Position numbers and translations under genes: made by a program. From the NCBI GenBank assembly GCA_947085505.1, contig CAMTWI010000004.1, positions 1,800 through 65,799 on the forward strand: a stretch of DNA of 64,000 nucleotides, given 5' to 3'. This stretch comes from an uncultured bacterium. GTDB lineage: Bacteria > Patescibacteriota > Minisyncoccia > Phycocordibacterales > Phycocordibacteraceae. How positions within the stretch are numbered: the stretch's first letter is position 1; the number at the start of each line of letters is the position of its first letter. The notes below the pieces were generated by a model. It was not told the DNA's origin. It did not search any database and saw nothing but the letters and a program-made list of their open reading frames with translations. Below are positions 1,744 through 46,562 of the stretch, one piece after another.

Positions 1744-2307
1744 ATGACTCGATACTCCCTACTCATTCTCATTGGCCTGGCCACTCTAATCGCACTTGCT
1801 GCGGGAATGTACTATCTCAACGCGCCCATCAGTACTGAACCAAGTCAGAAAGTTGTTCTTACGCCAGACACCCCGGCTCGTCTCATGATTCCAGTACTTG
1901 ATGTTGATGCATCGGTTGAATCTGTCGGACGCACGCGAGCGGGAAATATGGGAAGCCCCACATCATCAACGGGTATTGCGTGGTTTAAAGAGGGCGCGAG
2001 ACCTGGCGAGCGCGGGAGTGCCGTTGTTGCAGGACACTTGGATAATGCACTCGGTCGTTCAGGAGTCTTCAAGAACCTCGAGAAGCTTCAAGCTGGTGAC
2101 GAGGTGCTCGTTGAAACCGTCTCTGGTGAGACTTTGCGCTTTAGAGTAGTTGAGATGGTGATCTATCCGCACAACGCAGCTCCTGACGATCTCTTCACTC
2201 GTGCTGACGGCAGTTTACTTAATCTCATCACCTGCACAGGTGAATGGCTCCAGGAAGAGAAGACGTATGACGGTCGGCTGGTTGTGTACACGGAGTTAGT
2301 ACCGTAA
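1744..2307 (+). CDS. Sortase (transpeptidase)
   Basis: ORF 1636..2307 with the start moved to ATG 1744, which gives an N-terminal TM anchor (LLILIGLATLIALAAGMYY). Conserved His (VVAGHLD), catalytic Cys in LNLITCTG (TLxTC type) and a downstream Arg (YDGRLVVY). Confidence 0.8.
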   Translation: MTRYSLLILIGLATLIALAAGMYYLNAPISTEPSQKVVLTPDTPARLMIPVLDVDASVESVGRTRAGNMGSPTSSTGIAWFKEGARPGERGSAVVAGHLDNALGRSGVFKNLEKLQAGDEVLVETVSGETLRFRVVEMVIYPHNAAPDDLFTRADGSLLNLITCTGEWLQEEKTYDGRLVVYTELVP

Positions 2308-2339
2308 GTGGGTACGGCTGGAATGTTTTTGCAGTTGGT

Positions 2340-2409
2340 GACCCCACGTTAGTGAGAATTGGAATCAGTTAGTATCTGAACTCAATACTTGGCTGGTGTA
2401 TGGACGGTC
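2340..2409 (-). repeat. Pseudo-tRNA-Glu-3'-end direct repeat, distal copy
   Basis: Plus strand reads GACCCCACGTTAGTGAGAATTGGAATCAG... The first ~29 nt are near-identical to 3083-3110. Read on the minus strand it is ATTCCAATTCTCACTAACGTGGGGTCAC, resembling the tRNA-Glu 3' end TTCGATTCCCCGTGGGATCAC. Confidence 0.6.
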
Positions 2410-2423
2410 TCTAGATAAAGAAG

Positions 2424-2456
2424 TAGCCCCGCAACCAAGTTAATGGCGGCGGGGCT
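2424..2456 (-). terminator. Intrinsic terminator of the 162-aa high-GC gene
   Basis: Minus strand: AGCCCCGC..loop..GCGGGGCT followed by ACTTCTTTATC, just after the stop at 2480. Confidence 0.55.
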
Positions 2457-2479
2457 CCCGTGACTAAATCGGGTTGAGT

Positions 2480-2968
2480 CTAGTTGGCTACAGCCGAGGC
2501 TTCGCGATCCAGCTCATGCTGAAAGCGATTCCAGTTGCGGTCGATGGTGATTTCGCCCGTACGAACGCGGTCATAAATCTCCTTGACCGTGCGAATACTG
2601 CCGCCGCTGATTGAGATGTTCTGGTGACGGACCGCAATCGCGGGGCCATCGCCGAAGCCGCCCTGGGTGTCGTTGTAGGTCTCGACACGCAGTGTGGCCC
2701 CTTTGTGCCTGTAGAGGCCATCCTTGCGGAAGCCCTCATGGATTTTCCCTTCGTAGGTCACGCGCTTGATGTGCTCGCGAGCCACGGTCGGAAGCACTGC
2801 CGAGGGATCCATGATGTCGGCGTAGATGGGAACGAAGTTTTCGCCACTCACCCGGTCGGTATCGACATCAGGTCCGTCGGTGCCGAGTTGGCTGCGCGAC
2901 TTTCCTTCGGTGGTGACGAGGGCGCTCGAGGTGGTGGTTTTCAACCAAATCCTTGCACTCATTTTCAA
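2480..2968 (-). CDS. Hypothetical protein (high-GC ORFan cassette)
   Basis: 162-aa ORF, visibly more GC-rich than its flanks. Has its own promoter, an SD (GGAAGGA) and a terminator. No motif recognised. Confidence 0.55.
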   Translation of the reverse strand: MKMSARIWLKTTTSSALVTTEGKSRSQLGTDGPDVDTDRVSGENFVPIYADIMDPSAVLPTVAREHIKRVTYEGKIHEGFRKDGLYRHKGATLRVETYNDTQGGFGDGPAIAVRHQNISISGGSIRTVKEIYDRVRTGEITIDRNWNRFQHELDREASAVAN

Positions 2969-3047
2969 AGTCCTTCCATGTTTCCGCCCTTTGGTTTTCT
3001 CCCGTAATCGCTTTTAACGAATATCGGCCCATCAGTACGGTATTTAA

Positions 3048-3076
3048 ACCGTACCATATAGTATATAAATAGTCAA
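3048..3076 (-). promoter_or_regulatory. Sigma70-like promoter of the 162-aa gene
   Basis: Minus strand: TTGACT-N17-TACGGT, about 80 nt upstream of the ATG at 2968. Confidence 0.5.
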
Positions 3077-3082
3077 GAGTGT

Positions 3083-3151
3083 GACCCACGTTAGCGAGAA
3101 TTGGAATGAGCCCGTGCAGGAGCTTAATACCTGGCTAACGTTTGAGGGGTC
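3083..3151 (-). repeat. Pseudo-tRNA-Glu-3'-end direct repeat, proximal copy
   Basis: Plus strand: GACCCACGTTAGCGAGAATTGGAATGAG...GCTAACGT..GGGGTC. Minus strand: ATTCCAATTCTCGCTAACGTGGGTCACA, compared with the tRNA-Glu 3' end plus flank TTCGATTCCCCGTGGGATCACA. Confidence 0.6.
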
Positions 3152-3164
3152 CCCTTGGAGAAGA

Positions 3165-3530
3165 CTAACCTTTAGCCATTTCTGCTTCTATCTTGGAAAC
3201 CAGATCAGATGAGTCTGTGTACTCAATGAGCTTTCCTTTGATGAATTTGAGTGCAGAAGAAGGGGTTGTGCCAGTCTTATATACGAAGAATGTCGGAATG
3301 CCCGCTGCTTGTACCAAGCCTATTTCTATACCCGCACCCGTGGAAGGGTATGAGACTTCAGCGATCATAAGGTCTGTATCCGGGATCTGAGAATTCGTCT
3401 CAATCTCTAGATTCTCCTCGTCATGAGGAAAGATAATGGTGTGTTCCGTTGCGAGCGCTGATTGCTTTAGAGGCTCGTACAGCTCGGTCTGGTAATCGTA
3501 ATTGCTGGAATGGGCAACAAGGATTTTCAT
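3165..3530 (-). CDS. Nucleoside 2-deoxyribosyltransferase-like (YtoQ-like) protein
   Basis: 121 aa. MKILVAHSS.. and DLMIAEVSYPSTGAGIEIGLVQAAGIPTFFVY fit the E..PS.G.G.E.G pattern of this fold (recalled, not searched). Confidence 0.5.
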   Translation of the reverse strand: MKILVAHSSNYDYQTELYEPLKQSALATEHTIIFPHDEENLEIETNSQIPDTDLMIAEVSYPSTGAGIEIGLVQAAGIPTFFVYKTGTTPSSALKFIKGKLIEYTDSSDLVSKIEAEMAKG

Positions 3531-3605
3531 AGCGATATTGTATCAGGTTCCAATGACTAATTGGGTACCGTCATGACGTGGCTTAAAATAAGCACAAAAA
3601 CATTG

Positions 3606-3677
3606 TGATCCCACGGGGAATCGAACCCCGATTTCCTGCGTGAAAGGCGGGCGTCCTAACCGTTAGACGATGGGACC
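3606..3677 (-). tRNA. tRNA-Glu (UUC)
   Basis: Minus strand: GGTCCCATCGTCTAACGGTTAGGACGCCCGCCTTTCACGCAGGAAATCGGGGTTCGATTCCCCGTGGGATCA. Cloverleaf folds by hand; anticodon loop is CTTTCAC. Confidence 0.9.
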
Positions 3678-3763
3678 TTTCTTGTAGCACTTTGCTACGG
3701 AAGGCACTGTACCACTTTTCTAGCGAGCTTCAAACGTTGTAATGCCTTATACTCCGTGAATAT

Positions 3764-4726
3764 ATGGGACTTATCATATCGCTTGCCTTACTTTTCATTG
3801 GGCTCCTCATCTTAATACTCGGGGCCGATTGGCTCGTGAAGGGGGCATCCTCTATAGCGCGAAGGTATGGAATCTCGCCCCTTGTTATAGGTCTTACGGT
3901 AGTGGCGTTCGGGACTTCAATGCCGGAACTTTCCGTGAATATCTACGCGGCACTTTCTGGTGCCACGGGACTTGCGGTAGGGAACGTCGTTGGTTCGAAT
4001 ATCGCAAACATCCTGCTCGTACTCGGTGCGTCGGCTATTATCTGCAGTTTGTCGGTAAAGTCGAGTACGGTGAGGTGGGAGATACCACTCGCGCTCCTTG
4101 CGAGCGTGCTTGTGCTTGTGGTGGGTAGTGACCGGCTTCTCGACGGTGCGGTTATCGACGTTATTACACGGACTGATGGCATCGTGTTGCTCGGATTGTT
4201 TGCGATATTTATGTTTTATATCATCGCGCTCGTTAAAAGCGACTCGAGTGCAATTGAGATTGATGATAGTGAAGCGCTCCCGAGAAGGCGCGCGGTGCTC
4301 TACACCGTTGTCGGACTTGTCGGACTTGTTGCGGGCGGGCGACTACTCGTAGATCAAGCGGTATCGTTCGCGACACTGGCCGGACTCTCCGAAGCTGTTG
4401 TCGGACTTACGGTAGTTGCGATTGGTACCTCGCTTCCTGAACTCGCAACCTCTGTAGTCGCCGCGTGGCGTAAACAAGTAGATATTGCCGTTGGCAACGT
4501 TATTGGCTCAAACATTTTCAACGTCTTCCTTGTACTTGGCGTAAGCTCGGTCATCGCGCCTTTGCCGGTACGTGATGGGTTCGTGGTCGATGCGCTCGTG
4601 ATGATTGCTGCGACACTCTTTTTATTTGTTGCGCTTTTCCTTGGCAAGCGCGGGCACATCGATCGATGGCAAGGAATACTATTTGTGCTTCTGTATTTTG
4701 CATACGTGACGTATTTGCTCCTCTAA
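3764..4726 (+). CDS. Ca2+/cation antiporter (CaCA, YrbG-like)
   Basis: 320 aa, about 10 TM segments. Two alpha-repeat motifs, GTSMPELSV and GTSLPELAT, each followed by GN(V)(V/I)GSNI. Confidence 0.85.
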   Translation: MGLIISLALLFIGLLILILGADWLVKGASSIARRYGISPLVIGLTVVAFGTSMPELSVNIYAALSGATGLAVGNVVGSNIANILLVLGASAIICSLSVKSSTVRWEIPLALLASVLVLVVGSDRLLDGAVIDVITRTDGIVLLGLFAIFMFYIIALVKSDSSAIEIDDSEALPRRRAVLYTVVGLVGLVAGGRLLVDQAVSFATLAGLSEAVVGLTVVAIGTSLPELATSVVAAWRKQVDIAVGNVIGSNIFNVFLVLGVSSVIAPLPVRDGFVVDALVMIAATLFLFVALFLGKRGHIDRWQGILFVLLYFAYVTYLLL

Positions 4727-4781
4727 GCCGACCCTTATCATTTACTGCTTCTCTTGATAGGATGCAGGGGTTCCAACACAG

Positions 4782-4869
4782 GGAGAGGTGCGTGAGTGGT
4801 TGAAACGACCGGTTTCGAAAACCGGCATACCGAAAGGTATCGGGAGTTCGAATCTCCCCCTCTCCGCCA
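4782..4869 (+). tRNA. tRNA-Ser (CGA), CCA encoded
   Basis: GGAGAGG...CCGGT TTCGAAA ACCGG, long variable arm, GGAGTTCGAATCTCC CCTCTCC G CCA. Confidence 0.9.
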
Positions 4870-4910
4870 AAGAAAAAGGGCGCTCGCTTTCGCGGGCGCC
4901 CTTAGAAGGT

Positions 4911-6080
4911 CTAGTACAACGTTGGCTTGTTGCGATCCTTCAAGAATGCAGCAATGGTTTCCGGGGCTGAGAGCCCCGGGTACGCCACTGATCCATTCAC
5001 GAACATTCGCATCGGCACGCCTGCTCGCTCGAGCATCTCAAAGCCCGCACGACCAGTTGGGTTCAGGTTGTCCGTTATGAATCGAAGGCTCTCCCCAACA
5101 TGCCGTAGTCCGAAACGAGAATCATTACGATCGAGATACGGCGCAAGTGGGGAATCACCCACAAGCAGGAAGGTAGCGCGTAGTGCACGCCCGGCGTAGC
5201 ACCCAGCCCGAAGGTCAGGAACTTGGTCACCAGCGATGAGGAGATCCTCGATCATCTCTCCACGGGAGAGAATTGCGAGTGTCTCGTCCACCATTTCTTC
5301 CTTCGATGCATACCGCGGCATGAGATAGAACTGAAACTTTTCGATAGTTTCATCGCTCTCGTCCACAATCCGCAAGTTTTGGTGAATGTTTCCAAACTCC
5401 TCAACGAGCGAATTATTGTTCTCAACCGTAATACCGGAGAGGTTTGCAATCTGTTGCAAACCAAGTAGGGCTGTTTGGATATCGTTCTTAACGCGATCTT
5501 TGATTGCCCGATTCTGGAACTGGAACTGAATGCGATACTCAAGAGGCATCACGTCCGTTCTCGCTGCCCGGTAGTTCTCTTCGAACTCGATGGGCGCGAG
5601 ATAGTCCCGGTAGTCTTCCAGGAGTGGATTACGAATGAGTCGTATGAAGTTGAGCGCATGCGCGCGCCAATTAATGCCAAGCCGTCGCTTGTATGAGCGA
5701 CGTTCTCGGTACCACTCCTCAGGCTGTAGGAAATAACAGCCGGTTCCCATACTCATGATCGCTTTCGGATCCGTGAACGGCACACGACATGCAATCGTTT
5801 CCGGCTTCAGGTAGTATCGTCTTCCCGGCGTTCCCCCAAGGAGTGGGCGAGGCCGGCTGAAGCCGTTATGAACTGATGTTGTGTGGTATTCGTTCGACAT
5901 TAGCATTTCCGCGGTTTGCGCTGAGGCAACCGTGAATGTGCCGTTTGCGTCGACGTAATCACGCACGAATTGGGCGGCGGCAAGCGCTTCAGGCGCTGCC
6001 GTGCCATCCTTCATGGCCTCGGTCATTAAGGTGCCGTCGACATCAAAGACGCCAACATACCCCAAGCTCGGCGTCTCCAT
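4911..6080 (-). CDS. HAD-superfamily hydrolase-like protein with large cap insertion
   Basis: 389 aa. N-terminal FDVDGTL (HAD motif I) and C-terminal LLIAGDQVPD (motif IV-like). Substrate unknown. Confidence 0.5.
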   Translation of the reverse strand: METPSLGYVGVFDVDGTLMTEAMKDGTAAPEALAAAQFVRDYVDANGTFTVASAQTAEMLMSNEYHTTSVHNGFSRPRPLLGGTPGRRYYLKPETIACRVPFTDPKAIMSMGTGCYFLQPEEWYRERRSYKRRLGINWRAHALNFIRLIRNPLLEDYRDYLAPIEFEENYRAARTDVMPLEYRIQFQFQNRAIKDRVKNDIQTALLGLQQIANLSGITVENNNSLVEEFGNIHQNLRIVDESDETIEKFQFYLMPRYASKEEMVDETLAILSRGEMIEDLLIAGDQVPDLRAGCYAGRALRATFLLVGDSPLAPYLDRNDSRFGLRHVGESLRFITDNLNPTGRAGFEMLERAGVPMRMFVNGSVAYPGLSAPETIAAFLKDRNKPTLY

Positions 6081-8688: not shown

Positions 8689-9972
8689 CTACTTCTTGTG
8701 CCTACGGAGGAAGGAGGGGATAGCGCCCCATGCTTCATCTTCGTCCTCGGTAGCGTTCTGTTGTGCGGAAGGCGGGGTGACGGTCTTTGTGACCGCTTCC
8801 TCACGCCGTTGCGGCTGGGCAGTTACGAGAGGCTCCTCGCGACGTTTCTCAACCTTTGGCTCTTCAACAACAGGCTCAGGGAGTGGTGCAGGTGCTGGCT
8901 CCTCGCGGCGTCCTATCTCGTTGTAGATCTTTCCACGGGTCTCCTCTTGTTCATCAGGCTGCATTGCAAAGAGGGAACGCTCGATACCGCCCTGGCTGCC
9001 GTCTCCATTGTCGCCCTCAGGGAAACCGGTTGCGATAACAATGATGCGGATTTGGCCCTTCTTAAGCTTCTCGTCGCGCATAATACCGAAGATAACTTTG
9101 GCGGTTGGATCAACAGAATCTGAGACAACCTTCGCCGCCTCCTGAACCTCGAGGATACCGAGATCGTCTGCACCAGCGACAACGAAGAGGACACCCTTCG
9201 CGCCCGTGATAGAGACGTCGAGGAGTGGGGAATTAACCGCTTGAGCGGCTGCGTCTTGTGCACGCCTGTCGCCATCTGCAATACCAATGCCCATGAGTGC
9301 GGGACCCGCGCCCTCCATGATGGCCTTGATGTCGTTGAAGTCGGTGTTGATCTCTCCTGGGGTAGTGATGATGTCAGAGACACCCTCAACGGCCTGGCGG
9401 AGAATCTCGTCGGCCATAGCGAATGCAGACTTCGCGCTGGTCTGTGCCTCAACAATAGAGAGGAGCTTGTCGTTAGGGATAACGATAAACGCATCCACTT
9501 CTTTCTTGAGCTCCATGAGACCTCGCTCAGCGAGCTCCTTGCGGTGCATGCCCTCGAACATGAATGGGCGAGTAACAACTGCGACGGTGAGTGCACCGAT
9601 TTCCTTTGCGATCCTCGCTACAACTGGTGCTGCACCGGTGCCAGTGCCGCCACCCATACCGCAGGTGATGAAGACCATATCCGAGCCCTGGAGTGCTTCC
9701 TGGATCTCCTGACGAGTCTCTTCAGCAGCACGCTTGCCGAGTTCCGGGTTCATACCGGTACCGAGCCCACGGGTTAGGTTCTTCCCGATGTGAATCTTCC
9801 GCTTCGCGAGGGAGCGGTGAAGATCCTGTGCGTCTGAGTTAACGGCAATGAATTCAACACCCTTCACCTTGGAATTAACCATGTGATTCACGGCATTGCA
9901 GCCGGAGCCGCCGACTCCCACGACACGTATCCTGGCGAACGTCTCGACTTCTGGTTCTACTCGCTTTGACAT
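8689..9972 (-). CDS. ftsZ: Cell division GTPase FtsZ
   Basis: 427 aa. GVGGSGCNAV and the tubulin signature GGGTGTGAAPV. Acidic/proline-rich linker and conserved C-terminal IPSFLRR peptide. Confidence 0.95.
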   Translation of the reverse strand: MSKRVEPEVETFARIRVVGVGGSGCNAVNHMVNSKVKGVEFIAVNSDAQDLHRSLAKRKIHIGKNLTRGLGTGMNPELGKRAAEETRQEIQEALQGSDMVFITCGMGGGTGTGAAPVVARIAKEIGALTVAVVTRPFMFEGMHRKELAERGLMELKKEVDAFIVIPNDKLLSIVEAQTSAKSAFAMADEILRQAVEGVSDIITTPGEINTDFNDIKAIMEGAGPALMGIGIADGDRRAQDAAAQAVNSPLLDVSITGAKGVLFVVAGADDLGILEVQEAAKVVSDSVDPTAKVIFGIMRDEKLKKGQIRIIVIATGFPEGDNGDGSQGGIERSLFAMQPDEQEETRGKIYNEIGRREEPAPAPLPEPVVEEPKVEKRREEPLVTAQPQRREEAVTKTVTPPSAQQNATEDEDEAWGAIPSFLRRHKK

Positions 9973-17596: not shown

Positions 17597-17624
17597 AAGT
17601 TAACACACCCCAAAATATTGTCAA
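17597..17624 (-). promoter_or_regulatory. Sigma70-like promoter of the 41-aa ORF
   Basis: Minus strand: TATTGACA-N16-TAACTT. Confidence 0.5.
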
Positions 17625-17640
17625 TACTCTGTGGATATGT

Positions 17641-17681
17641 CGTAATAAAAGGAAAAGGCTCGGACCGAGTGGGTCCGAGCC
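17641..17681 (-). terminator. Intrinsic terminator after the 349-aa gene
   Basis: Minus strand: GGCTCGGACC-loop-GGTCCGAGCC followed by TTTTCCTTTTATT. Confidence 0.7.
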
Positions 17682-17707
17682 TGCCTCCTAAGAGGACTTA
17701 AAGGTTC

Positions 17708-18757
17708 TTACTTCTTCTTGTTCGACTTGCCTTTGAGGGACATGTCGGCCGAGGAACCCCGACGGGCCTGACGTTCGGCCTGGTCACGCTGCGAGCGCGC
17801 GGCCAGTTTGGCTTTGCGTGCAGGCGGCGGGCCTTTGGATCGAGTCGCCGACACCGTCGGCAGCGGGGTGCTCGTCACTTCGTTGACCGTCCCGCGCTTG
17901 GCGCAGGTGATCTTGAAGCGCAGGGCGTAGTCCGGCCGGTGCTGCAGTGCGTCGAGGACGTGCTGCTGCACACCTCGGCCCAGCAGGCCGCGATCACCGT
18001 CGTCCTCGAGCAGCTTGTAGGCCGCTTCGAAGACCGCGGGCGAACGCTTGCCGCCCACAGCCAGCACGGCGACGAGCTCGTGGTAGAGCTTGTCTTCCGC
18101 GCGGGTGCGCTGATCACCCTTCAGCTCCTCGCGCAGGCGCGCTTGGGACTGACGGATGTACAGGATGCGGATGTCAGCCACATCCTCGGTGCTGAGGTTC
18201 TTGATCTCGAGCGTGCCGTCGGTGTTGGCCAGCTTGCGGACGTTGCCGTCCGCGTACAGGATGTCGATGGACTCGCCGTCGGTGAGGCCGATCAGCATCT
18301 CGTCCTGGTAATTGGAGCTGGTCACGACGCTGCCGTCGGTGACGATCTTCGAGGAGAATGCCTCCTTGAACGTCGTACCCTTCGTGCGGGCGAACTTGGT
18401 GTCCACGTGCACGAGAACGGAATCGTCGGCCTTCATGCGCTGCCGGAGCAGCGGAAGCTGTCCGTCCTTGCCGGCCCAGCGGATGCTGGCGGCCCGGACG
18501 ATGTGGGCTTCGTTGATCGCGCACGGCTGGTGCGAATCAACCATGATGTAGCGTTTGCCGATGAACAGCGGCGGCTGGGTCTGCATCGAGGAATTGACGT
18601 TCAGGAGGAGACCCTCCTCGAGAACGCCTTCCAGGAAGCGGAAGCAGTTGGTGGCCGGCTGGACGATGCCCAGCTGCGGCGCCTTCAGACCCCGAAGGGA
18701 CTGGGCCGGGTGGGCAGCGACGAAGTCGATGTGGTCCTGGGTGTTTTCGGCGGACAT
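17708..18757 (-). CDS. Hypothetical 349-aa protein with basic C-terminal tail (high-GC island)
   Basis: Long ORF with a GC-rich third-position style unlike its neighbours. The C-terminus is lysine/arginine-rich (ARKAKLAARSQRDQAERQARR..KGKSNKKK). No recognisable domain. Confidence 0.6.
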   Translation of the reverse strand: MSAENTQDHIDFVAAHPAQSLRGLKAPQLGIVQPATNCFRFLEGVLEEGLLLNVNSSMQTQPPLFIGKRYIMVDSHQPCAINEAHIVRAASIRWAGKDGQLPLLRQRMKADDSVLVHVDTKFARTKGTTFKEAFSSKIVTDGSVVTSSNYQDEMLIGLTDGESIDILYADGNVRKLANTDGTLEIKNLSTEDVADIRILYIRQSQARLREELKGDQRTRAEDKLYHELVAVLAVGGKRSPAVFEAAYKLLEDDGDRGLLGRGVQQHVLDALQHRPDYALRFKITCAKRGTVNEVTSTPLPTVSATRSKGPPPARKAKLAARSQRDQAERQARRGSSADMSLKGKSNKKK

Positions 18758-25286: not shown

Positions 25287-25586
25287 ATGAAAAAAATTCT
25301 TCTTGCGATTGCCGCGTTTGCCTTTGTGCCAGTCTCTGCACACGCAGCGAGCCTCAAGGAGTTAACGCAGGATATCGTTGAGTTGGTAAACACTTCAGTA
25401 GTGCCTCTCTTCTATGCGCTTGCATTTCTCTTATTCATATACGGCATGGTCCGATTCTTTTTCTTCGGGGGAGAAGAGAATCGTGCGAAGGGTAAGACCT
25501 TTATGCTCTGGGGAATCATTGGATTCGTGGTTATGTTTTCAGTTTGGGGCATTGTCAGGCTCCTTATGACCGCGCTTCCTGGTTAG
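25287..25586 (+). CDS. TrbC/VirB2-like small membrane protein (paralog 2)
   Basis: 99 aa. Signal peptide, VPLFYALAFLLFIYGMVRFFFFGGEENRAKGKTFMLWGIIGFVVMFSVWGIV. Confidence 0.6.
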   Translation: MKKILLAIAAFAFVPVSAHAASLKELTQDIVELVNTSVVPLFYALAFLLFIYGMVRFFFFGGEENRAKGKTFMLWGIIGFVVMFSVWGIVRLLMTALPG

Positions 25587-25632
25587 TGTATAAACCCTTG
25601 TTCTGCCCTCGTATCCTGTTACGCTTTATACT

Positions 25633-26040
25633 ATGAAAACATTTGTCACAGCACTCCTTATAGGTCTCTTTTCAGTTGCTACTACCGTATCCGCTCAGGT
25701 TGTGCCCGCCACCTCAGCACGAGGCAATATCGGTGGCAATACACTGGGAGCATATCTCGCTAGCATCGTTGATTTCATCAATGTCTATCTTGTACCCTTC
25801 CTTTTCGCAATAGCCTTCTTCGTCTTCATCTGGGGTATCTTCAACTATTTCATTGCAGGAGGAGCCAACGAAGAGCAGCGAGACAAAGGAAAGCAGCTCG
25901 TTATGTGGGGGATTATCGGATTCGTGGTTATGGTCTCTCTCTGGGGTCTTGTGAACCTAATTACCAATACCCTTAATTTTGGGGAAAGCGGAAACGCACC
26001 AAAGATACCACAATTCGATCCTCCTAGGTCAGGCTCCTAA
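25633..26040 (+). CDS. TrbC/VirB2-like small membrane protein (paralog 3)
   Basis: 135 aa. VPFLFAIAFFVFIWGIFNYFIAGGANEEQRDKGKQLVMWGIIGFVVMVSLWGLVN. Confidence 0.6.
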   Translation: MKTFVTALLIGLFSVATTVSAQVVPATSARGNIGGNTLGAYLASIVDFINVYLVPFLFAIAFFVFIWGIFNYFIAGGANEEQRDKGKQLVMWGIIGFVVMVSLWGLVNLITNTLNFGESGNAPKIPQFDPPRSGS

Positions 26041-26150
26041 CCCAAGGGCTGTTTCGCGTTTTCCACACGGAATTCCTAGCTCTATTGACCTCCCCCCATT
26101 ACCGACTATCCTATAGGTATACGCCATCGCGTTACCCGTAATCAAACATT

Positions 26151-26513
26151 ATGAAGAAACTAGGTTATCTCAGTGCCGCATTTGCGCTTTCGTTCCCGCT
26201 CTTCGCTTTCGCGCAGGTGAACGCAACGAACGTACAGAACCTTGGCCAGGGCATCATTGGTCTTATTAACAACGTTGCAGTGCCTCTTCTATTCGCGGTC
26301 GCATTCATCGTCTTCATCTGGGGTATCTTCACGTACTTCATATCAGGCGGTCACGACGAGGAGAAGCGTGAGACCGGAAAGAGTCTTATGCTCTGGGGAA
26401 TCATTGGATTCTTCATCATGGTTTCGGTATGGGGTCTTGTGAACATCCTTCGCGGAACATTCAACTTCGACAACCGCATCGATTACGGACAGCCGCTTCC
26501 GCCGAGCCGCTAA
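26151..26513 (+). CDS. TrbC/VirB2-like small membrane protein (paralog 4)
   Basis: 120 aa. VPLLFAVAFIVFIWGIFTYFISGGHDEEKRETGKSLMLWGIIGFFIMVSVWGLVN. Confidence 0.6.
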   Translation: MKKLGYLSAAFALSFPLFAFAQVNATNVQNLGQGIIGLINNVAVPLLFAVAFIVFIWGIFTYFISGGHDEEKRETGKSLMLWGIIGFFIMVSVWGLVNILRGTFNFDNRIDYGQPLPPSR

Positions 26514-26570
26514 ACGCTCTCTCCACACAAAAGCCCGCGCGCAAGCGCGGGCTTTTGCTATGATGAGTAT

Positions 26571-26819
26571 ATGAGCCCCTTCCAAACATTCGTCGGGAAA
26601 GTACAGGAGAATATTCTCACACCGATCATCACGCTCCTTTCGCTCGCTGCGTTCCTTTTGTTCCTCTGGGGCATTGTGGAGTTCATTGCTGGCGCTGAAG
26701 ACGAAGAAAAGCGTAAGAGCGGACAGCAACATATGATCTGGGGAATCATTGGTCTGGTTATTATCTTTGGCGCGAACGCCATTGTCTCTCTCATTAAAGC
26801 AACAGTTGGTGCACCATAG
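26571..26819 (+). CDS. TrbC/VirB2-like small membrane protein (paralog 5, no signal peptide)
   Basis: 82 aa. LSLAAFLLFLWGIVEFIAGAEDEEKRKSGQQHMIWGIIGLVIIFGANAIV. Confidence 0.55.
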   Translation: MSPFQTFVGKVQENILTPIITLLSLAAFLLFLWGIVEFIAGAEDEEKRKSGQQHMIWGIIGLVIIFGANAIVSLIKATVGAP

Positions 26820-38012: not shown

Positions 38013-38040
38013 TACCCAAAAAGCAGGTTGGGGATAGCGG

Positions 38041-38067
38041 GCGGGCCCTGTGGGACGAGATTCGAAA
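38041..38067 (-). repeat. Pseudo-tRNA-3'-end element at the distal edge of the tRNA-Trp island
   Basis: Minus strand: TTTCGAATCTCGTCCCACAGGGCCCGC. T-loop-like TTCGAAT plus AGGGCCCGC, compared with the tRNA-Trp end TTCGATT..AGGCCCGC. 19/27 ungapped identity to the tRNA-Gln-locus repeat GTTCCAACATCGTCCCAGATTGCCAGC. Confidence 0.55.
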
Positions 38068-38090
38068 TATAATTCAGTTATAATAATGCA

Positions 38091-38993
38091 GTGAACACCA
38101 CTCTCATTCTCGAGGAGCTCTACTCAAAGGAGGAGATCGAAACTGCTTTCGATACTAATTTTGGTCCGCGCATAAAGGGTATTACTCAGCGACGTTCTTC
38201 AGATAATGAGCCATATATACTCATATTTGCTTCCGCTCGCGGCTCAATAGTGTACGGGGATAGGGTTGAGGGTAGGATTTTCTATTACAAGGGTGAGGGA
38301 TCAGACGGTGACCAGAAGCTTACAACCGCAAATAAGGCACTGATAAATTCAAATCTAAACAAGACACCCATCTTTGGTTTTCGTCAGCATGAGATTGGTG
38401 GCAAATACCAGTATCTTGGATTGGTATCGGTCCTTGAGTGGACCTATGCAGATTTCAATGGCAGAAAGGTGTATGAATTTAAATTCGAACAGGAGGGCTT
38501 AGAGAATCCTCTGCAAAGTACTAAAGAGTGGAATGAAATAAAGAACCAAAGTGAGCTTCCGGACCCATCCCTCACGGGAACGGGTGAAGTAGCTGTATCT
38601 ACTGTATCTAGCATAAAACGAAATGCAGCCTTTCCATTAAAGATTAAGGAGCAGTATCAGAATCGATGTGCTGTGTGTAGAAAATCACGGTGTACGGCTG
38701 CTGGGTACCCAGAGGTTCAGTCCGCCCATATATACCCAAAGGAGAAGAATGGAGCAGATGACTTAAGAAATGGCATAGCTCTATGCAGGCTTCATCACTG
38801 GGCTTTTGACGAGGGGCTGCTGGCTATTTCTGATGATTTAACTCTACTCGTTAACAATGCCATTACAAAGGATGAAGACTACGAAGAAATTAGCAAGTAC
38901 GCCGGAGTAGCTATCCTGCCTCCTCTGGACAAACGATATACACCGTTGCCACTTTTTCTGACAGAGCATAGAAAGCTACATGGGTTTGAGTAG
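38091..38993 (+). CDS. SRA(YDG)-like domain fused to HNH nuclease; putative modification-dependent (type IV) restriction enzyme
   Basis: 300 aa, GTG start. N-terminal YILIFASARG..FYYKGEGSDGDQKLTTANKALINS parallels the SRA motif Y.L...GGY....F.YTG.GG...DQKLT..N.AL. C-terminal CAVCRK..AHIYPK..NGIALCRLHHWAFD is HNH. Confidence 0.75.
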   Translation: MNTTLILEELYSKEEIETAFDTNFGPRIKGITQRRSSDNEPYILIFASARGSIVYGDRVEGRIFYYKGEGSDGDQKLTTANKALINSNLNKTPIFGFRQHEIGGKYQYLGLVSVLEWTYADFNGRKVYEFKFEQEGLENPLQSTKEWNEIKNQSELPDPSLTGTGEVAVSTVSSIKRNAAFPLKIKEQYQNRCAVCRKSRCTAAGYPEVQSAHIYPKEKNGADDLRNGIALCRLHHWAFDEGLLAISDDLTLLVNNAITKDEDYEEISKYAGVAILPPLDKRYTPLPLFLTEHRKLHGFE

Positions 38994-39083
38994 GTGTTGA
39001 TGAGTGCGAGTGCCCCCTAGGACAAGATTCAGCTTGCTTTAGAAGGGTATTGTGCCCCCAGGTACGAGTAGTATGATTCCTTC

Positions 39084-40088
39084 ATGAAGCTAAACTACGA
39101 AATAACGCCTGAGAATCTCAAGATTCTGGAAATCAAGCAAGTACTGCTGGATAAAGAGAAATTCGGTGCTCTTACGTTTGATCGGGCTTATTTACCTCTG
39201 CATGAGCTCAGGAAGATGTTTGTAGAGTTTCAAGAGCTCGACTACGCTTCTAAACTGGCTCCTGACGAAGTGCAAGAAGTGGAAAACTACAAGAATCAAC
39301 TTCTTGACTATGTTCGCCGAGTTCACTCAATAGATCCTACTACTGATCCTACTTTTAATACGAATGTTCGTGAGAATTTAGAAAATGAAATAATAAGTTT
39401 TTGTCAGCGAGTGAGTAAGGTTTTGAGAAACAACCTTGTCTATCTTAGACAGGAGCTTGCTCTTAGGAATCAGGACCAGCAAAGCTTAGCTGAAGAACAA
39501 AAAGCTACTGTGCAAGCGAGGAAGCAGGCAGAAGAAACGTTAAGTCAACTACAAGCAAAGCTTGAGGAACTAACTAGTAGAGAGCAGCAGCTCGAAAACA
39601 AATCAGGCGAGTTTGGTGCGAAGGCTCTCGGAATTCATTTTGGTACCGAGACAGATAACTATTCGGATGTAGCTAATAAGTGGTTTGTTGCCTCAATCGT
39701 TGCCTATCTTTTTCTTGTTTTCATCGTAATTGGTATAGGAATCTATTACAGTTTTTTCCATGGCGGCGGCTGGGAAACTCTTACGTGGCAGGAGGGAACC
39801 GCAAAGCTCTTTCTCTTTGCGGCTCTATGGTACGGATTAACCTTCATTACACGAAACTACAATGTAAATTCACATCTTGCTGCTGTAAATCGGCATCGTG
39901 CAGCAGTCGCTAAAACTCTCGAAGATTTCCTTGCTTCAAGTCCATCTGCTACTGGTGAAATGTTGAAGAATGGTACAGAAGCCATGTTTCGGCATGTAGC
40001 GATCGGTTTCATAACGAAAGCCGAAAAGGATTCTGGAAACCCTCTTCTTGAAGTCGTGAATAAGGTGGTGAATCCAAAAGGGGAATAA
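39084..40088 (+). CDS. Coiled-coil protein with C-terminal double-TM domain (unknown function)
   Basis: 334 aa. Heptad-rich QQSLAEEQKATVQARKQAEETLSQLQAKLEELTSREQQLE, then WFVASIVAYLFLVFIVIGIGIYY and LFLFAALWYGLTFI helices. Confidence 0.55.
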   Translation: MKLNYEITPENLKILEIKQVLLDKEKFGALTFDRAYLPLHELRKMFVEFQELDYASKLAPDEVQEVENYKNQLLDYVRRVHSIDPTTDPTFNTNVRENLENEIISFCQRVSKVLRNNLVYLRQELALRNQDQQSLAEEQKATVQARKQAEETLSQLQAKLEELTSREQQLENKSGEFGAKALGIHFGTETDNYSDVANKWFVASIVAYLFLVFIVIGIGIYYSFFHGGGWETLTWQEGTAKLFLFAALWYGLTFITRNYNVNSHLAAVNRHRAAVAKTLEDFLASSPSATGEMLKNGTEAMFRHVAIGFITKAEKDSGNPLLEVVNKVVNPKGE

Positions 40089-40203
40089 AATCAAAGGATA
40101 CGGTTGATTTCAAAATGATTCAGACCGTATGGAATGAGATAAAATTAGGTTACGGCTCCACACATCGTTTAAAATTTTAGGTAAACCAACTTTTCAATCA
40201 TCT

Positions 40204-40770
40204 TTAGGACAAAGAGTCTTTGGGGGTTGCAAGTTTTATATAGTCTAGCAATCGGTACTGATCTATAAGTTCAATCGGCTTGTCTTCAGCAAACTTTCTA
40301 GCTTCAAGAGTGAATCCTGCAGTAGTGATGAAATAGGCTTGCCCGTTTGCTAGGCGACCTGCTATAGCCCCGTAGAAATCTCTAATAGCTGACACCGGCA
40401 CCTGTCGAGTGATGTATCTCTTGCACTGAATATAGTTTGTAACACCGTTTTTCGTGGCAATCACATCAATCCCACCGTCGTAAGATTTTCCGACCGCTTC
40501 AGCCTGATACCCAAGTTGTATAAAAAGCTCAGCAATATAATCCTCGAACTCTTTAGGACTCATGCCCCGTATCCACTGGATAAGATCTCTATCAGATCTC
40601 CATTGCGCACCAGCCTTGAACTGCCGCTTGTTCCTCCATGAGCGATAGAGATCAGGTAAAACGACTTCGACCAGTACCCGAAGAACAAGCATTCCGAACA
40701 CGAAGACAATAAGCCATCCGAACACGGGTGAAAGCATTTCCACAATAGGATTGCTCGGAAAGATATCCAT
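40204..40770 (-). CDS. Membrane-anchored Mrr-like restriction endonuclease
   Basis: 188 aa. N-terminal TM (FGWLIVFVFGMLVLRVLV). FEDYIAELFIQLGY..DGGIDVIA...IQCKRY..V..IRDFYGA..FITTAGFT matches the Mrr_cat D-(Q/E)xK core (recalled). Confidence 0.8.
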   Translation of the reverse strand: MDIFPSNPIVEMLSPVFGWLIVFVFGMLVLRVLVEVVLPDLYRSWRNKRQFKAGAQWRSDRDLIQWIRGMSPKEFEDYIAELFIQLGYQAEAVGKSYDGGIDVIATKNGVTNYIQCKRYITRQVPVSAIRDFYGAIAGRLANGQAYFITTAGFTLEARKFAEDKPIELIDQYRLLDYIKLATPKDSLS

Positions 40771-40773
40771 TTC

Positions 40774-40974
40774 TTAAATACTATCACTCGGGCGTGCCTG
40801 CGTTTGAGGCTCTTCGGATAAGGCATCATAGAGCCTGGCCAAAGATCCTAAGAAAAGCTGAGCCTCGCCGGGAGAAACTTCAAGGTCGTAACTATTCTGG
40901 AAATAAGTGATCAGCCTTGTTTCCAAGCTTTTAGAAAACTTAAAATCAGAAGAGACGCTCTCTACAGTCCTCAT
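40774..40974 (-). CDS. Small hypothetical protein, paralog of 42340..42537
   Basis: Start moved to ATG 40974 (66 aa). LETRLITYFQNSYDLEVSPGEAQLFLGSLARLYDAL aligns with ELTNRTIAYYLGRGESISPETAQEYLRDMSSLYGSF. Confidence 0.4.
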   Translation of the reverse strand: MRTVESVSSDFKFSKSLETRLITYFQNSYDLEVSPGEAQLFLGSLARLYDALSEEPQTQARPSDSI

Positions 40975-41311
40975 ATACAAAAGTCTTTTGAGCCTCTGAA
41001 CTACACTTTGACCACTTGATATAATCCCCGTCAAAAGTGCCACAAGTACTCTGCGTGTGTGTTCCCATGGCAATACCCATTTCAGTAAGGCAGTCTCCGT
41101 ATGCTTTCATTTTAGTGTCCTGCGCTTTCATGGCTCTAATATTTGCTTCCTTCTGCGCGGCTTGCTGTTCAGGAGTTGGATTCGCACGCTGTACGGCCTG
41201 CTGGTGTACCTGAACGTCTTTCTGAGGCAGATAATAGCCGTAGTAATAACCAACAGAAATACCTCCTATTATCACGGCTAGGAGTGCAATCGGATCGAGG
41301 AAATTCTTCAT
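40946..41311 (-). CDS. Hypothetical membrane-anchored protein
   Basis: 121 aa. N-terminal TM (IALLAVIIGGISVGYYYGYY). Gln/Ala-rich linker and a Cys-containing C-terminus. Confidence 0.45.
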   Translation of the reverse strand: MKNFLDPIALLAVIIGGISVGYYYGYYLPQKDVQVHQQAVQRANPTPEQQAAQKEANIRAMKAQDTKMKAYGDCLTEMGIAMGTHTQSTCGTFDGDYIKWSKCSSEAQKTFVYEDCRERLF

Positions 41312-41340
41312 GGTCAGTAGGGGGACTGACCTCCCCTCAG

Positions 41341-41562
41341 TTATTTGAGGAAATAAGAAATATCTTTCTTGTAGATCTTGGCAAAGCGCTGAAGTTCTAT
41401 GACATCAACACGTTGTTGTCCCGACTCTACATTTGAGATATGCGACTGAGGCCTGTCGAGTTTCTTGGCAACTTCAGTCTGGGTCAGTCCTGCATCAAGG
41501 CGAGCCTTTCTAAGACGCTCGACAAAAACGGCATATTCCTTGGTATGAACTGACTTCTTCAT
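41341..41562 (-). CDS. XRE-family helix-turn-helix regulator
   Basis: 73 aa. RLRKARLDAGLTQTEVAKKLDRPQSHISNVESGQQRVDVIEL is a canonical HTH_3. Confidence 0.85.
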   Translation of the reverse strand: MKKSVHTKEYAVFVERLRKARLDAGLTQTEVAKKLDRPQSHISNVESGQQRVDVIELQRFAKIYKKDISYFLK

Positions 41563-41589
41563 ACACTAGAGCGTGTATCCAAGAAGTCA

Positions 41590-41608
41590 ATATCCAAATT
41601 ATGGATAT
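41590..41608. promoter_or_regulatory. Candidate operator palindrome in the divergent XRE intergenic region
   Basis: ATATCCA-AATTA-TGGATAT, a perfect 7-bp inverted repeat between divergent genes. Confidence 0.5.
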
Positions 41609-41653
41609 CGGTGGCAATTCGTAAAACAAGCGCTTTAGGTATATTCTTCGGCC

Positions 41654-42295
41654 ATGAGTCCAGAGGTAAGAAAGACCCTAGAGATTGTTTGTGCCGCAAT
41701 GCCTACTCGGCGTCAAGACGAGGAGTCTGATTTTTATTCGGTTCTCCTTACAGAGAAAGATTTTAAAAGGCAGGATCTAAGTATTGATGCTGGAGTCGCT
41801 GCGCTTAAGCATCTGGCTAGTACTGGTTCTGCTTTTGTCGAGGTTGGAAACATTTATGAAGCATCAATTGAAAACTTCGATGACCCTACGTTGGATGGGG
41901 AGCATTGTGTCGACATTTATGTTCACTCCTCTGTTCACCTAGAGCTGTTTGGAGGGTCTTCCATACCTGAGACAAAACCTACTTTTAGCTTTAGTGAAAA
42001 TATTCTAAAAGTAAATAGTCAGGACATATTATTTGGATCAATTGATGCAAAGGAAAAGGGAGCATATATATTGCAGTACATATTCGAGCATGATCTATCA
42101 GAACCTTCTGATTACAATGAAATACATGATCGTTTCTTTTTCGATGATCCAAGTTCTGGTTTTGGGAAAAGATTATACGAGGCATGCCGGATCATACGGC
42201 AAAGAGTTTTTGATATTTCCGGTGTGCGGGACTTTCTAATTTTTAACTCAAGCGACAAGGGCTCTGTAAGGATTAATCCTAAATATCTACCGTAG
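41654..42295 (+). CDS. Hypothetical protein (element-borne)
   Basis: 213-aa ORF divergent from the XRE gene. No motif recognised. Confidence 0.5.
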   Translation: MSPEVRKTLEIVCAAMPTRRQDEESDFYSVLLTEKDFKRQDLSIDAGVAALKHLASTGSAFVEVGNIYEASIENFDDPTLDGEHCVDIYVHSSVHLELFGGSSIPETKPTFSFSENILKVNSQDILFGSIDAKEKGAYILQYIFEHDLSEPSDYNEIHDRFFFDDPSSGFGKRLYEACRIIRQRVFDISGVRDFLIFNSSDKGSVRINPKYLP

Positions 42296-42339
42296 CTATA
42301 CGGTAGGATACCGTACGCCAAATTTTCTAAGCTCCCTTA

Positions 42340-42537
42340 GTGGAGCCTTTTTCATTTAGCCCAGAACTCACAAACCGCACTATTGCCTATTACTTGGGTC
42401 GTGGTGAATCCATATCTCCTGAAACAGCCCAGGAGTATTTAAGGGATATGTCGAGCCTCTACGGGTCGTTTATGGCGTTTGCGGACGTGCAGGAGGGGAA
42501 GGCGGCAGCGGCTTCAGCCGCGCCGTCGCACCCCTGA
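42340..42537 (+). CDS. Small hypothetical protein, paralog of 40774..40974
   Basis: 65 aa. Shared pattern L..R.I.Y(F/Y)......(V/I)SP(G/E).AQ.(F/Y)L...(A/S).LY. Confidence 0.4.
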   Translation: MEPFSFSPELTNRTIAYYLGRGESISPETAQEYLRDMSSLYGSFMAFADVQEGKAAAASAAPSHP

Positions 42538-42577
42538 CTTGATAAATAGCACATACAAGACACATACGAGATGAATC

Positions 42578-43351
42578 ATGGGATACACAAAAATTATTCA
42601 GTCAGGAGATCTAATCGAAAAATATGAGTACGAAAAACCTCCGCCCGAGCGTGTGCCTCGAAAGGTTAAGCCGGGGCGTATCGCTCCGTGGTCCGATCAA
42701 CTTACCGAAGAAAGGAGAGCAGATTGCATACACAAGAGACGAATATCAAGCATTAATCGTTGCCGCCAGTCGTTTTTCCGTCTCGTACGAGCGAATCTAC
42801 ACGCGGGCGCTCCCATCCTGCTCACACTCACAATGCTGGATATCGTGGACCTCAGAACTGCATACGCTTGCTACCACGAATTCGGACAAAGGCTGCGTCG
42901 AATTATCGGAAAGAATACTTCTTGGATTGCTGTGCCGGAGTTTCAGAAAAGGGATGCCGTACATTTCCATGTTCTGATCTGGAATCTACCCCATGAATAC
43001 ATTGAAACCGAACCAGACACCCGTCGAATTCAGAATCTCTGGAGAGCCGGTTATGTTGATCTTGTTCAGACAGACGGTTCGCCTAAGCTTGCTACCTACC
43101 TCGCAAAGTACATGTCCAAAGCGATGCAGGACCCTCGGCTCCTGGGACAAAAAGCGTATAGTGCTAGTCGGAATATATTGCGCCCGGTGTCGTTCAACAC
43201 TCAAACGTCGGTTAACACTGCTTGTGAGGTCTGGGGCATAACTGACGAGACAAAGCCAGAGTATGATCGGGAATTCGACACAAAGTGGATGGGGAAATGT
43301 CGCTATACTTCCTATTCTATCCAAAATATAGATAATGCTAAGGACGCATGA
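42578..43351 (+). CDS. HUH-type rolling-circle replication initiator (Rep)
   Basis: 257 aa. AVHFHVLIWN is the HUH motif and ATYLAKYMSK the Y-x-x-K-Y catalytic Tyr motif, as in small ssDNA phage/plasmid Reps. Confidence 0.7.
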   Translation: MGYTKIIQSGDLIEKYEYEKPPPERVPRKVKPGRIAPWSDQLTEERRADCIHKRRISSINRCRQSFFRLVRANLHAGAPILLTLTMLDIVDLRTAYACYHEFGQRLRRIIGKNTSWIAVPEFQKRDAVHFHVLIWNLPHEYIETEPDTRRIQNLWRAGYVDLVQTDGSPKLATYLAKYMSKAMQDPRLLGQKAYSASRNILRPVSFNTQTSVNTACEVWGITDETKPEYDREFDTKWMGKCRYTSYSIQNIDNAKDA

Positions 43352-44811: not shown

Positions 44812-44870
44812 GAATCGAACCTAGGACGTCGGTTTTGGAGACCGAAGTTATACCATTTAACTATAGACCC
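44800..44870 (-). tRNA. tRNA-Trp (CCA)
   Basis: Minus strand: GGGTCTATAGTTAAATGGTATAACTTCGGTCTCCAAAACCGACGTCCTAGGTTCGATTCCTAGTAGGCCCG. Anticodon loop CTCCAAA. Confidence 0.9.
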
Positions 44871-44948
44871 GGTATTGCCCACGATACCAGATACAGGGGT
44901 AGTGGAAAAGAACCCGTAATTAGAGCGTGCGCGGGATACAATCACTCT

Positions 44949-45983: not shown

Positions 45984-45986
45984 TAT

Positions 45987-46562
45987 ATGAATATGAACTG
46001 GAAAATAATTCTTGCCTCTATTTTTCTCATACTCGGTCTTGCAACCATACTTATTACTGCATTCTTAATGCTAGATACTTCACCAAGGCAGTCTATCGAA
46101 GAGTCCCCTCAGGTTCTGTTTCCAACGAGCGGGGTGTTCGAGGCTACGGATTCTACAGGGAGACTTACACTAACGGGTGAAAGTGGTGAACCCATAACTG
46201 TAAAAGATTTTATTCGTAACGGTGAGACCGTTACTGACACTGTGAATCCTGGATCTTTCGTACTTGCTGGAAGTGTTGGTTATTGCTTGGAGGACGGATC
46301 ATGTCCTGAGGGTGCAAACACCGATAATTTCTCCATTACCTACAATAACGAGATTCAATCGTTCAATATTGTTCTACTTGCAGAGCCTCTTAGAAGATCC
46401 AGGGAGGCATCTGAGCGCTTTCTCATTGAAAGGCTCGGTCTTTCACAAGAGGATCTATGCAGACTGAACTACAATCTAGGAGTTCCTTATTTCGTAAATG
46501 AGCAATTCGCTGGTCAGAACCTACGGTTTAGTTTCTGCAAGGATGCTATCGTTCTACCATAG
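45987..46562 (+). CDS. Hypothetical membrane-anchored protein
   Basis: 191 aa. N-terminal TM (ILASIFLILGLATILITAFLML). Lies between the two pilin-hydrolase fusions. Confidence 0.5.
   Translation: MNMNWKIILASIFLILGLATILITAFLMLDTSPRQSIEESPQVLFPTSGVFEATDSTGRLTLTGESGEPITVKDFIRNGETVTDTVNPGSFVLAGSVGYCLEDGSCPEGANTDNFSITYNNEIQSFNIVLLAEPLRRSREASERFLIERLGLSQEDLCRLNYNLGVPYFVNEQFAGQNLRFSFCKDAIVLP

Follow-up and report, generated by a model that had tools for sequence, protein, structure and literature searches.

Re-spaced tRNA-Glu 3'-end mimics bounding single-gene cassettes in Patescibacteria: candidate attachment half-sites of serine integrases

Patescibacteria have tiny genomes, in which few mobile elements have been recognised. 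In the stretch of 64,000 nt analysed here (contig CAMTWI010000004.1 of an uncultured patescibacterium, positions 1,800 to 65,799; referred to as the window), two direct repeats that resemble the 3' end of tRNA-Glu stand downstream of a tRNA-Glu gene and bracket a single-gene cassette, and the locus raises the question of what these repeats are and how they came to be there. A preliminary description of the locus placed the tRNA on the minus strand and took the repeats for pseudo-tRNA ends bounding an inserted cassette; the first point was borne out, and the second was strengthened. The tRNA-Glu(UUC) gene was located by ARAGORN and Rfam at 3605-3677 (minus strand), and on this strand it is followed by a 121-aa open reading frame (ORF) resembling nucleoside 2-deoxyribosyltransferases (NDT-like), by repeat B, by a unit composed of a promoter, a leader, a 160-aa ORF and a hairpin, and then by repeat A, beyond which lies the 3' end of a convergent sortase gene. 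We consider it probable that the repeats are attP-derived half-sites together with an adjoining arm, left by elements for which the 3' end of tRNA-Glu was the integration site and a large serine recombinase (LSR) most likely the enzyme.

The two repeats (2343-2409 and 3085-3151) are direct repeats with 72% identity over 67 nt, and a profile search widened them to ~95 nt each, at 2338-2433 for repeat A (nhmmer E 2e-23) and 3080-3178 for repeat B (E 4e-20), both given on the plus strand. Their 20-nt core, ACGTTAGYGAGAATTGGAAT, has two exact occurrences in the window, against none expected from shuffled sequences. Read in the sense of the tRNA, the repeats end in ..GATTCCAATTCTCRCTAACGTGGG(G)TCAC, which matches the tRNA 3' end, GGTTCGATTCCCCGTGGG(A/G)TCAC, apart from an insertion of 5 nt; in full, ..(G/A)TTCCAATTCTCACTAACGTGGGTCAC stands against ..GGTTCGATTCCCCGTGGGGTCAC in tRNA-Glu. 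Comparison of these 3' ends suggests that the last ~25 nt of the tRNA (GGTTCGATTCCCCGTGGGATCAC) correspond to an attB-type half-site that the repeats imitate. The P (attP-type) half-sites would then occupy 2338-2368 in repeat A and 3081-3110, read on the minus strand, in repeat B. Repeat A, the outermost copy, which abuts the chromosome and is attR-like, carries an extra C (GGGG), through which its core comes to match the 3' end of tRNA-Glu in relatives exactly.

The 5-nt insertion, already pointed out in the preliminary description, proved to be both real and diagnostic. When measured from TTC[GC]A to TCA, the span is 20 in 7/7 tRNA-Glu genes, whereas it is 25 in 15/17 repeats, including repeat B, and 26 in repeat A. 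In serine integrases, the zinc-ribbon-domain (ZD) motif is present in both attP and attB, but lies 5 bp nearer to the centre in attB (Rutherford et al. 2013, PMC3783163). The shift between tRNA and repeat equals this displacement, and therefore the repeats look like attP-type half-sites, the partner attB of which would be the T-loop and acceptor strand of the tRNA. The same architecture had been proposed at other tRNAs, and it was found at tRNA-Gln and tRNA-Trp in the window, as well as at tRNA-Glu in many other Patescibacteria. Downstream of tRNA-Gln (61216-61287), a repeat search and the +5 span revealed a sister array (62011-63887, plus strand) in which four repeats (GGTTCCAACATCGTCCCAGAnnGCCAGCAA) bracket cassettes; with the same base taken as origin, the span is 25 in the tRNA and 30 in the repeat. 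At tRNA-Trp the span is 21, and 26 in a site at 38036-38075 described below. Hence, at all three tRNAs the shared motif lies 5 bp closer to the crossover on the tRNA side, as the ZD motif does in attB.

The Gln-type repeats (at 62011, 62312, 63448 and 63852) are ~36-50 nt long and mimic the tRNA-Gln 3' end. Among the cassettes between them, one has a GC-rich ORF of 150 aa (62908-63360) and a terminator, and the intervals 62047-62311 and 63484-63851 contain no obvious ORF.

The repeat family was then followed beyond the window, by pattern scans of genomes and metagenomes and by a protein search. The first genome-wide pattern scan gave 27 matches, which is about the estimated chance number, with a single true homologue, L026, among them; viral contigs, scanned for the DNA pattern, for the peptide profile and for the LSR of the window, gave no matches. 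In all, 17 DNA copies were collected in 12 loci, each of them from Patescibacteria or from an unassigned contig. A tRNA-Glu gene (UUC or CUC) lies near the repeat, at a distance of 0.4-5.6 kb, in the window and in L037, L039, L041, L042, L043 and L052, and in these loci the repeat is always downstream of the tRNA 3' end with its tRNA-like strand on the strand of the tRNA. Two chromosomal contexts were recognised, namely tRNA-Ser/tRNA-Glu(UUC), as in the window, and murF-tRNA-Glu(CUC), in L039, L043 and L052. The arrays comprise one to three single-gene cassettes: L039 has three copies of the repeat ~0.75 kb apart, each following one gene in the sense of the tRNA, and L043, L050 and L055 have two copies each. 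The cassettes of the window, L037, L039, L043, L045 and L050 contain one cargo gene only, with neither an integrase nor replication genes of their own.

Comparison of relatives for the presence or absence of cassettes precisely at the repeats, which the preliminary description had suggested, gave a positive result, since the cassettes differ and homology stops at the core. BLAST gave 83% identity between the window (3687-3082) and L041 over the tRNA, the NDT-like gene and repeat B as far as the final base of its core (3082 in the window, 808 in L041), and past this core the window continues with the cassette of the 160-aa gene and L041 with a DUF1653 gene. L042 and L050 share 94% identity over 1.9 kb ending at the core, after which an extra 116-aa cassette and a second repeat intervene in L050 until synteny is restored. 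The right end of an unrelated 76-aa cassette in the other tRNA-Glu context (L043) shares 83% identity with the hairpin and repeat A of the window. L037, L042 and L045 lack the NDT-like gene in the interval from tRNA-Glu to the first repeat. A cargo gene shared by L037 and L045 stands directly after the tRNA core in one of them, and after a ~60-nt downstream segment in the other. Many cassettes start with (A/T)nTTGAC within 2-6 nt of the core. LSRs recombine sites of ~40-50 bp, which have imperfect inverted symmetry, at a central dinucleotide. The homology breaks place the crossover at or adjoining GGTCAC; GTCA-N5-TGAC symmetry is seen at several junctions, at which only one half-site can be read with confidence.

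The left end of the first cassette of the window, between the tRNA and the NDT-like gene (3531-3604, minus strand, read directly), contains GGTACC..TAGTC.TTGGAACC, a segment (the 'F' element) that it has in common with the region downstream of tRNA-Glu in relatives. This ~60-nt conserved segment (a hairpin plus CGTACAGAGGTACCAnAnTAGTnGTTGGAACC) is found directly downstream of tRNA-Glu in several genomes; besides the copy in the window, it was located at 286-350 in L041, at 1001-940 and 327-290 (minus strand) in L045, and at 3930-3995 in L026. In L045 it is duplicated after the repeat core, and the L026 copy stands behind a degenerate core in a region that has no tRNA close by.

The remaining ~65 nt of the repeat evolve as protein-coding DNA, on the strand antisense to the tRNA. 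In one plus-strand frame, the pairwise differences at the three codon positions number 268, 173 and 479, and the differing codon pairs are 308 synonymous and 331 non-synonymous, as opposed to 36-57 and ~560 in the other forward frames; furthermore, no stop codon was found in this frame in 11 copies of 26 codons. Since the 21 nt that served for the database scan were excluded from this measurement, the signal is not an ascertainment effect. In repeat B the segment belongs to a 43-codon ORF, (V/M)THVSENWNEPVQELNTWLTFEG.. (3081-3212, plus strand), while translation of repeat A shows that its extra C shifts the GTG codon out of frame with this segment. A profile search of 1.84 billion representative proteins returned 102 members of the family, nearly all of 29-120 aa, and the match (consensus MTQVGQNWNQLVxELxxWxxFGRxLE) always covered either the C-terminus or the whole protein.

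What protein this segment might belong to is suggested by the element at tRNA-Trp. An LSR gene (43348-44811, plus strand; Pfam Resolvase, Recombinase and Zn_ribbon_recom; PHROG 95 integrase, 1.4e-80) is located at one end of a 6.8-kb low-GC element (38036-44870), which also encodes an HNH/SRA protein, an Mrr-type nuclease and a Rep protein (PF23343/RepSA-like), and the last codons of the LSR ORF overlap the 3' end of tRNA-Trp (44799-44870, minus strand) in antisense orientation. The distal end of the element, at 38036-38075 (minus strand), is a pseudo-tRNA-Trp 3' end (TTCGAATCTCGTCCCACAGGGCCCGC) in which the T-loop motif is displaced outward by 5 bp; this site was found by reading the low-GC boundary, as a mismatch search had missed it. 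When this site is joined to the LSR 3' end at the shared CGGGCC, the frame stays open for 12 codons, so that ..RAY* is replaced with ..RALWDEIRNIIQL* (..RA-LWDEIRNIIQL*), and the new tail resembles the peptide (L)LAVWDDVGTFL that is obtained when the Gln-type repeats are read antisense. Just past tRNA-Trp (44835-47481) there are two paralogues resembling type IV secretion system (T4SS) pilins.

A connection at a Glu-type repeat was seen in L053, where the repeat segment is the in-frame continuation of a 171-aa remnant that matches the C-terminal part of serine integrases (PHROG 95, profile positions 451-564 of 651, E 1.8e-8); a search for full-length relatives of this integrase returned only the remnant itself. 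Five further sequences (P0038, P0047, P0052, P0055 and P0057) have in-frame upstream extensions that are similar to one another, and a constant 11-residue spacer before VTQV. The coding pattern, the L053 fusion and the tRNA-Trp join together suggest an attP that would lie inside the 3' end of the integrase gene, with the tail belonging to the integrase and being stranded at the distal junction upon integration. On this proposal, the pattern of purifying selection among the repeats would have been inherited from active elements. The stranded copies show decay, namely the frame shift in repeat A, a 2-nt deletion in the L042 copy and the reduction of L039c and L046b to the core, which fits the idea of a tail stranded by integration.

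The mechanism would thus be as follows. The T-loop and the 3' strand of the acceptor stem would serve as the attB half-site, and the P half-site would keep TTC(C/G)A and CGTGGGTCAC, set 5 bp further apart, the difference in spacing by which serine integrases distinguish attP from attB. Integration would leave the tRNA intact and would place the P half-site at the far end of the insert, so that repeated events, or the later loss of the integrase gene, could give rise to arrays that can be written tRNA-[promoter-gene-terminator-P site]n. As long as the element is free, its integrase ORF would continue across the core into a tail of ~30 codons, and the piece coding for this tail would be left behind at the distal junction upon integration. 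An LSR acting on the Glu sites, with the small cassettes moving in trans, is the inferred agent.

Several points weigh against this mechanism. Canonical serine integrases recombine only attP with attB (PMC3783163), and therefore tandem arrays with internal P sites need an added assumption; left ends acting as attB-type half-sites, the integration of multimers, and homologous exchange between the conserved arms are candidates. L045 shows duplication, beyond the core, of the sequence that follows the tRNA (31/31 nt), an outcome not expected from simple conservative recombination. The 1.84 billion representative proteins yielded no intact LSR with a Glu-type tail, although clustering at 50% identity could hide one; no other LSR was present in any fetched locus, and no recombinase of any kind adjoins the Glu arrays examined. 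The five in-frame extensions gave no significant LSR likeness by HHalign, PHROGs, BLASTP or Pfam, so that such a likeness is a resemblance by eye only. Finally, -10-like boxes lie 4-12 nt upstream of the GTG in several copies, which would fit a stand-alone leaderless gene.

This last point also speaks for the alternative that a free-standing small gene of ~30 aa, present in paralogous copies, makes up the repeats. It would be translated from GTG, ATG or TTG at the core, and the likeness to the tRNA would come only from an overlapping recombination site; the product of the gene could be a regulator, or a factor of the recombination-directionality type, that travels with the cassettes. The strong coding signature with its stop-free frame, the ~100 clusters of small proteins in the family, and the presence of a same-strand gene 90-120 nt downstream of the ORF in L042, L050 and L052 agree with such a gene, and so does a first codon that is always GTG, ATG or TTG. 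However, the variable base of this codon is the first base after the tRNA discriminator, where three of the four bases give a start codon, and therefore its constancy is weak evidence. In addition, the copies have no Shine-Dalgarno sequence, repeat A and the L042 copy are frame-shifted, and the ORF continues in frame from the serine-integrase remnant in L053 and from a conserved upstream extension with no assigned identity in the five other sequences. We regard a free-standing gene as a serious but less likely account of the coding signal, and an integrase tail as the better one.

A different agent was also considered, in which the repeats would be the ordinary attR scars of islands inserted by tyrosine integrases, the spacing would be incidental and the serine recombinase at tRNA-Trp would have nothing to do with the Glu sites. 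Most known tRNA-targeting islands use tyrosine integrases (PMC4383910), and tandem accretion with partial tRNA copies is known from tycheposons, whose recombinases are mostly of the tyrosine type (10.1101/2020.12.28.424599); the Glu arrays, as said, have no LSR next to them. Nevertheless, the att sites of such islands share a continuous identical core with the tRNA, and not two motifs that are re-spaced by 5 bp at three tRNAs. The outermost repeats do not have the own 3' end of the local tRNA, for example in L043, L052 and L039, and neither IntI nor any other tyrosine recombinase was detected among the 40 window ORFs scanned or among the neighbouring genes of L042, L050 and L052. Tyrosine-integrase scars are accordingly a rather improbable origin, and we retain half-sites of a serine integrase as the preferred one.

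The preliminary description had also proposed that the repeats form a structured RNA, and as a plus-strand small RNA they would have an outer helix GACCC/GGGTC, an inner helix ACGUUAGC/GCUAACGU and a variable hairpin. These helices do form in copy B, which folds at -27.4 kcal/mol (z = -2.8), two pairs of the central hairpin have changed on both sides, and the substituted positions of copy A still pair as G-U, on the plus strand only. The structure is, however, not maintained in homologues: the 12 copies pair at 76.4% of positions versus 74.8% in shuffles, with 32/500 shuffles reaching the observed value and 40/500 reaching the covariation score, and several pairs are broken in most copies, one pair of the outer helix being unpaired in 11/12 copies and one of the inner helix in 7/12. 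Copy A folds no better than its shuffles (z = -0.58), and Rfam gave no match at the repeats, either at the gathering threshold or at E values up to 10. The substitutions track codon positions, and the supposed G-U wobble changes are mostly third-position changes of the plus-strand reading frame, so that a small RNA can be set aside with little hesitation. Local tandem duplication or chance similarity with no link to recombination, which the mere two copies in the window might suggest, is hardly credible, as the family recurs downstream of tRNA-Glu in many unrelated contigs, shuffles gave no matches, and the cargo between copies varies by locus.

With the repeats read as half-sites, the window holds two cassettes behind tRNA-Glu, of which the first ends in repeat B and the second in repeat A. 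The cargo of the first, the NDT-like ORF (3165-3530, minus strand), does match PF05014 (E 3.7e-4), as its initial identification implied, but with 21 bits it remains below the Pfam gathering cut-off of 28.8. The cargo of the second (2480-2962, or 2968; minus strand) is a 160-aa protein with no assigned function and ~60% GC. It cannot strictly be called an ORFan, since six homologues with 42-47% identity were found, none of which, like the protein itself, belongs to a Pfam family; the 160-aa protein has no PHROG family either. The supposedly high GC content of the cassette is modest (0.60-0.63 versus ~0.52 for the window). Relationship to IS200/IS605 elements, which have an ORF of similar size, was considered and dropped, because inspection by eye revealed no HUH motif in the 160-aa ORF and Pfam gave no match for it. 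More generally, 10 cargo proteins from other loci likewise have no Pfam family, and the NDT-like and DUF1653 proteins are the exceptions.

The promoter described for the second cassette, TTGACT-N17-(TGG)TACGGT (3049-3077, minus strand), starts 3 nt after the repeat B core, and its reality is supported by two homologous loci, L004 and L006, in which it is kept as TTGAC(A/T)-N17-TA(ATG/GCA)T; a generic promoter scan did not flag it. It is followed by a conserved 5' leader of the 160-aa gene (ACCGTAC..ACTGATGG..GGGCGGAAAC..GGAGGA; 2963-3048, minus strand) with a hairpin. According to an alignment and a consensus fold, the ~85-nt leader and the extended -10 promoter (TTGAC(A/T)-N17-TGGTAnnnT) are common to the three loci (2963-3077 in the window, 9890-10000 in L004 and 595-709 in L006), and the hairpin shows some compensatory change among the three sequences, so that the leader could be a cis-regulatory RNA. 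As for the terminator attributed to the cassette, a hairpin with 13-nt arms is present between the cargo gene and repeat A (2425-2456), although a simple terminator scan did not flag it. In L004, a sequence weakly like the Gln-type repeat and then TTGAC (9854-9899; nhmmer E 0.015) precedes the 165-aa homologue. This match hints that the same cargo may travel with different types of att site.

Some further regions deserve mention. L026, which comes from a marine patescibacterial metagenome-assembled genome (MAG), has a GC-rich island (2200-5150; 0.57-0.63 versus ~0.40-0.47 in the flanks) that abuts its single repeat copy and contains two self-contained transcription units with no assigned function. 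The highest-GC stretch of the window (0.63; 17600-18700) is occupied by a 349-aa ORF with no Pfam match (17708-18757, minus strand). At 25473-26795 there are four tandem paralogous segments of ~93 nt, 65-76% identical and ~350-490 nt apart, apparently within a run of genes for small paralogous membrane proteins.

A cassette mechanism anchored at tRNA genes would explain how accessory genes, here mostly with no assigned function, are exchanged in Patescibacteria. The +5-bp relation between a tRNA and its mimic would provide a simple signature, readable from sequence, for the attB/attP pairs of serine integrases, and such pairs would be useful for the annotation of islands and for the mining of integrases with defined targets. 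If the integrase tail is indeed exchanged on integration, this would amount to integration-dependent control of a serine integrase, of which we found no report in the literature searched.

It remains to compare the locus with known systems. The att sites of LSRs (A118/LI Listeria, Bxb1 and phiC31; PMC3783163) are likewise short and share a distal and a core-proximal motif, and the LSR gene abuts a junction, as it does in the tRNA-Trp element. Unlike them, the attB would here be the T-loop and acceptor end of a tRNA gene, the 3' end of the integrase ORF seems to contain the attP, and strict attP x attB directionality would not lead one to expect arrays with internal P sites. The tycheposons of Prochlorococcus are islands adjacent to tRNAs in which partial tRNA copies between elements are read as successive integrations that push older ones outward; their recombinases are tyrosine or large serine recombinases, and degenerate remnants occur (Hackl et al., 10.1101/2020.12.28.424599). 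The islands next to a tRNA, the downstream partial copies of its 3' end in the same orientation and the degenerate remnants are all found here too, but the present units measure 0.45-0.75 kb and consist of one gene that has a promoter and a terminator of its own but lacks integration and replication modules, what stands for the partial tRNA is a re-spaced mimic and not a copy, and the hosts are Patescibacteria. The locus behaves much as tycheposon islands do, as a hotspot of integration anchored at a tRNA, in which elements have accreted.

Integrons resemble these arrays in their rows of mostly single genes, largely with no assigned function, each accompanied by a recombination element of ~60-100 nt, and in a cassette content that varies between relatives; they differ in that the cassettes here carry their own promoters, are anchored at a tRNA gene and have no IntI beside them among the genes scanned. 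An attC reading of the repeats was rejected, as the order of the motifs is GTTAGC..GCTAAC (GTTAGY..GCTRRY) and not RYYYAAC..GTTRRRY, and the pairing is not kept in 12 copies. The locus is neither an integron nor an RNA gene. Only tentatively do we raise the broader idea of an integron-like cassette system that is built on serine integrases in Patescibacteria, in which cassettes are captured sequentially behind tRNA genes by integrases acting in trans, and in which the integrase gene spans attP and undergoes a tail swap. Promoter-bearing single-gene cassettes would each end in an attP-type mimic of the T-loop and acceptor end; integration would swap a C-terminal tail of ~12-30 residues, which could switch the activity or the directionality of the integrase; and for a new tRNA target it would suffice to alter the core-proximal motif, since all tRNAs have the T-loop motif in common.

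In the partitioned integrase of SSV1 and in the integration-dependent immunity of mycobacteriophages such as BPs, attP also lies within an ORF, and integration alters or splits a protein and leaves a gene fragment at one junction; both involve tyrosine integrases, whereas the affected ORF would here be the C-terminal tail of a serine integrase, a fusion seen only on the truncated L053 remnant. The accretion of cis-mobilizable elements (CIMEs) and integrative and conjugative elements (ICEs) similarly lets integrase-less, att-bounded units accumulate in tandem at one site, but CIME units are larger, use tyrosine-recombinase sites and have no conserved coding tail in the att arm. Compared with known systems, what differs here is the tiny, promoter-bearing, integrase-less single-gene cassette, the att site that is a re-spaced mimic of a tRNA and, as we infer, the overlap of an integrase ORF with attP.

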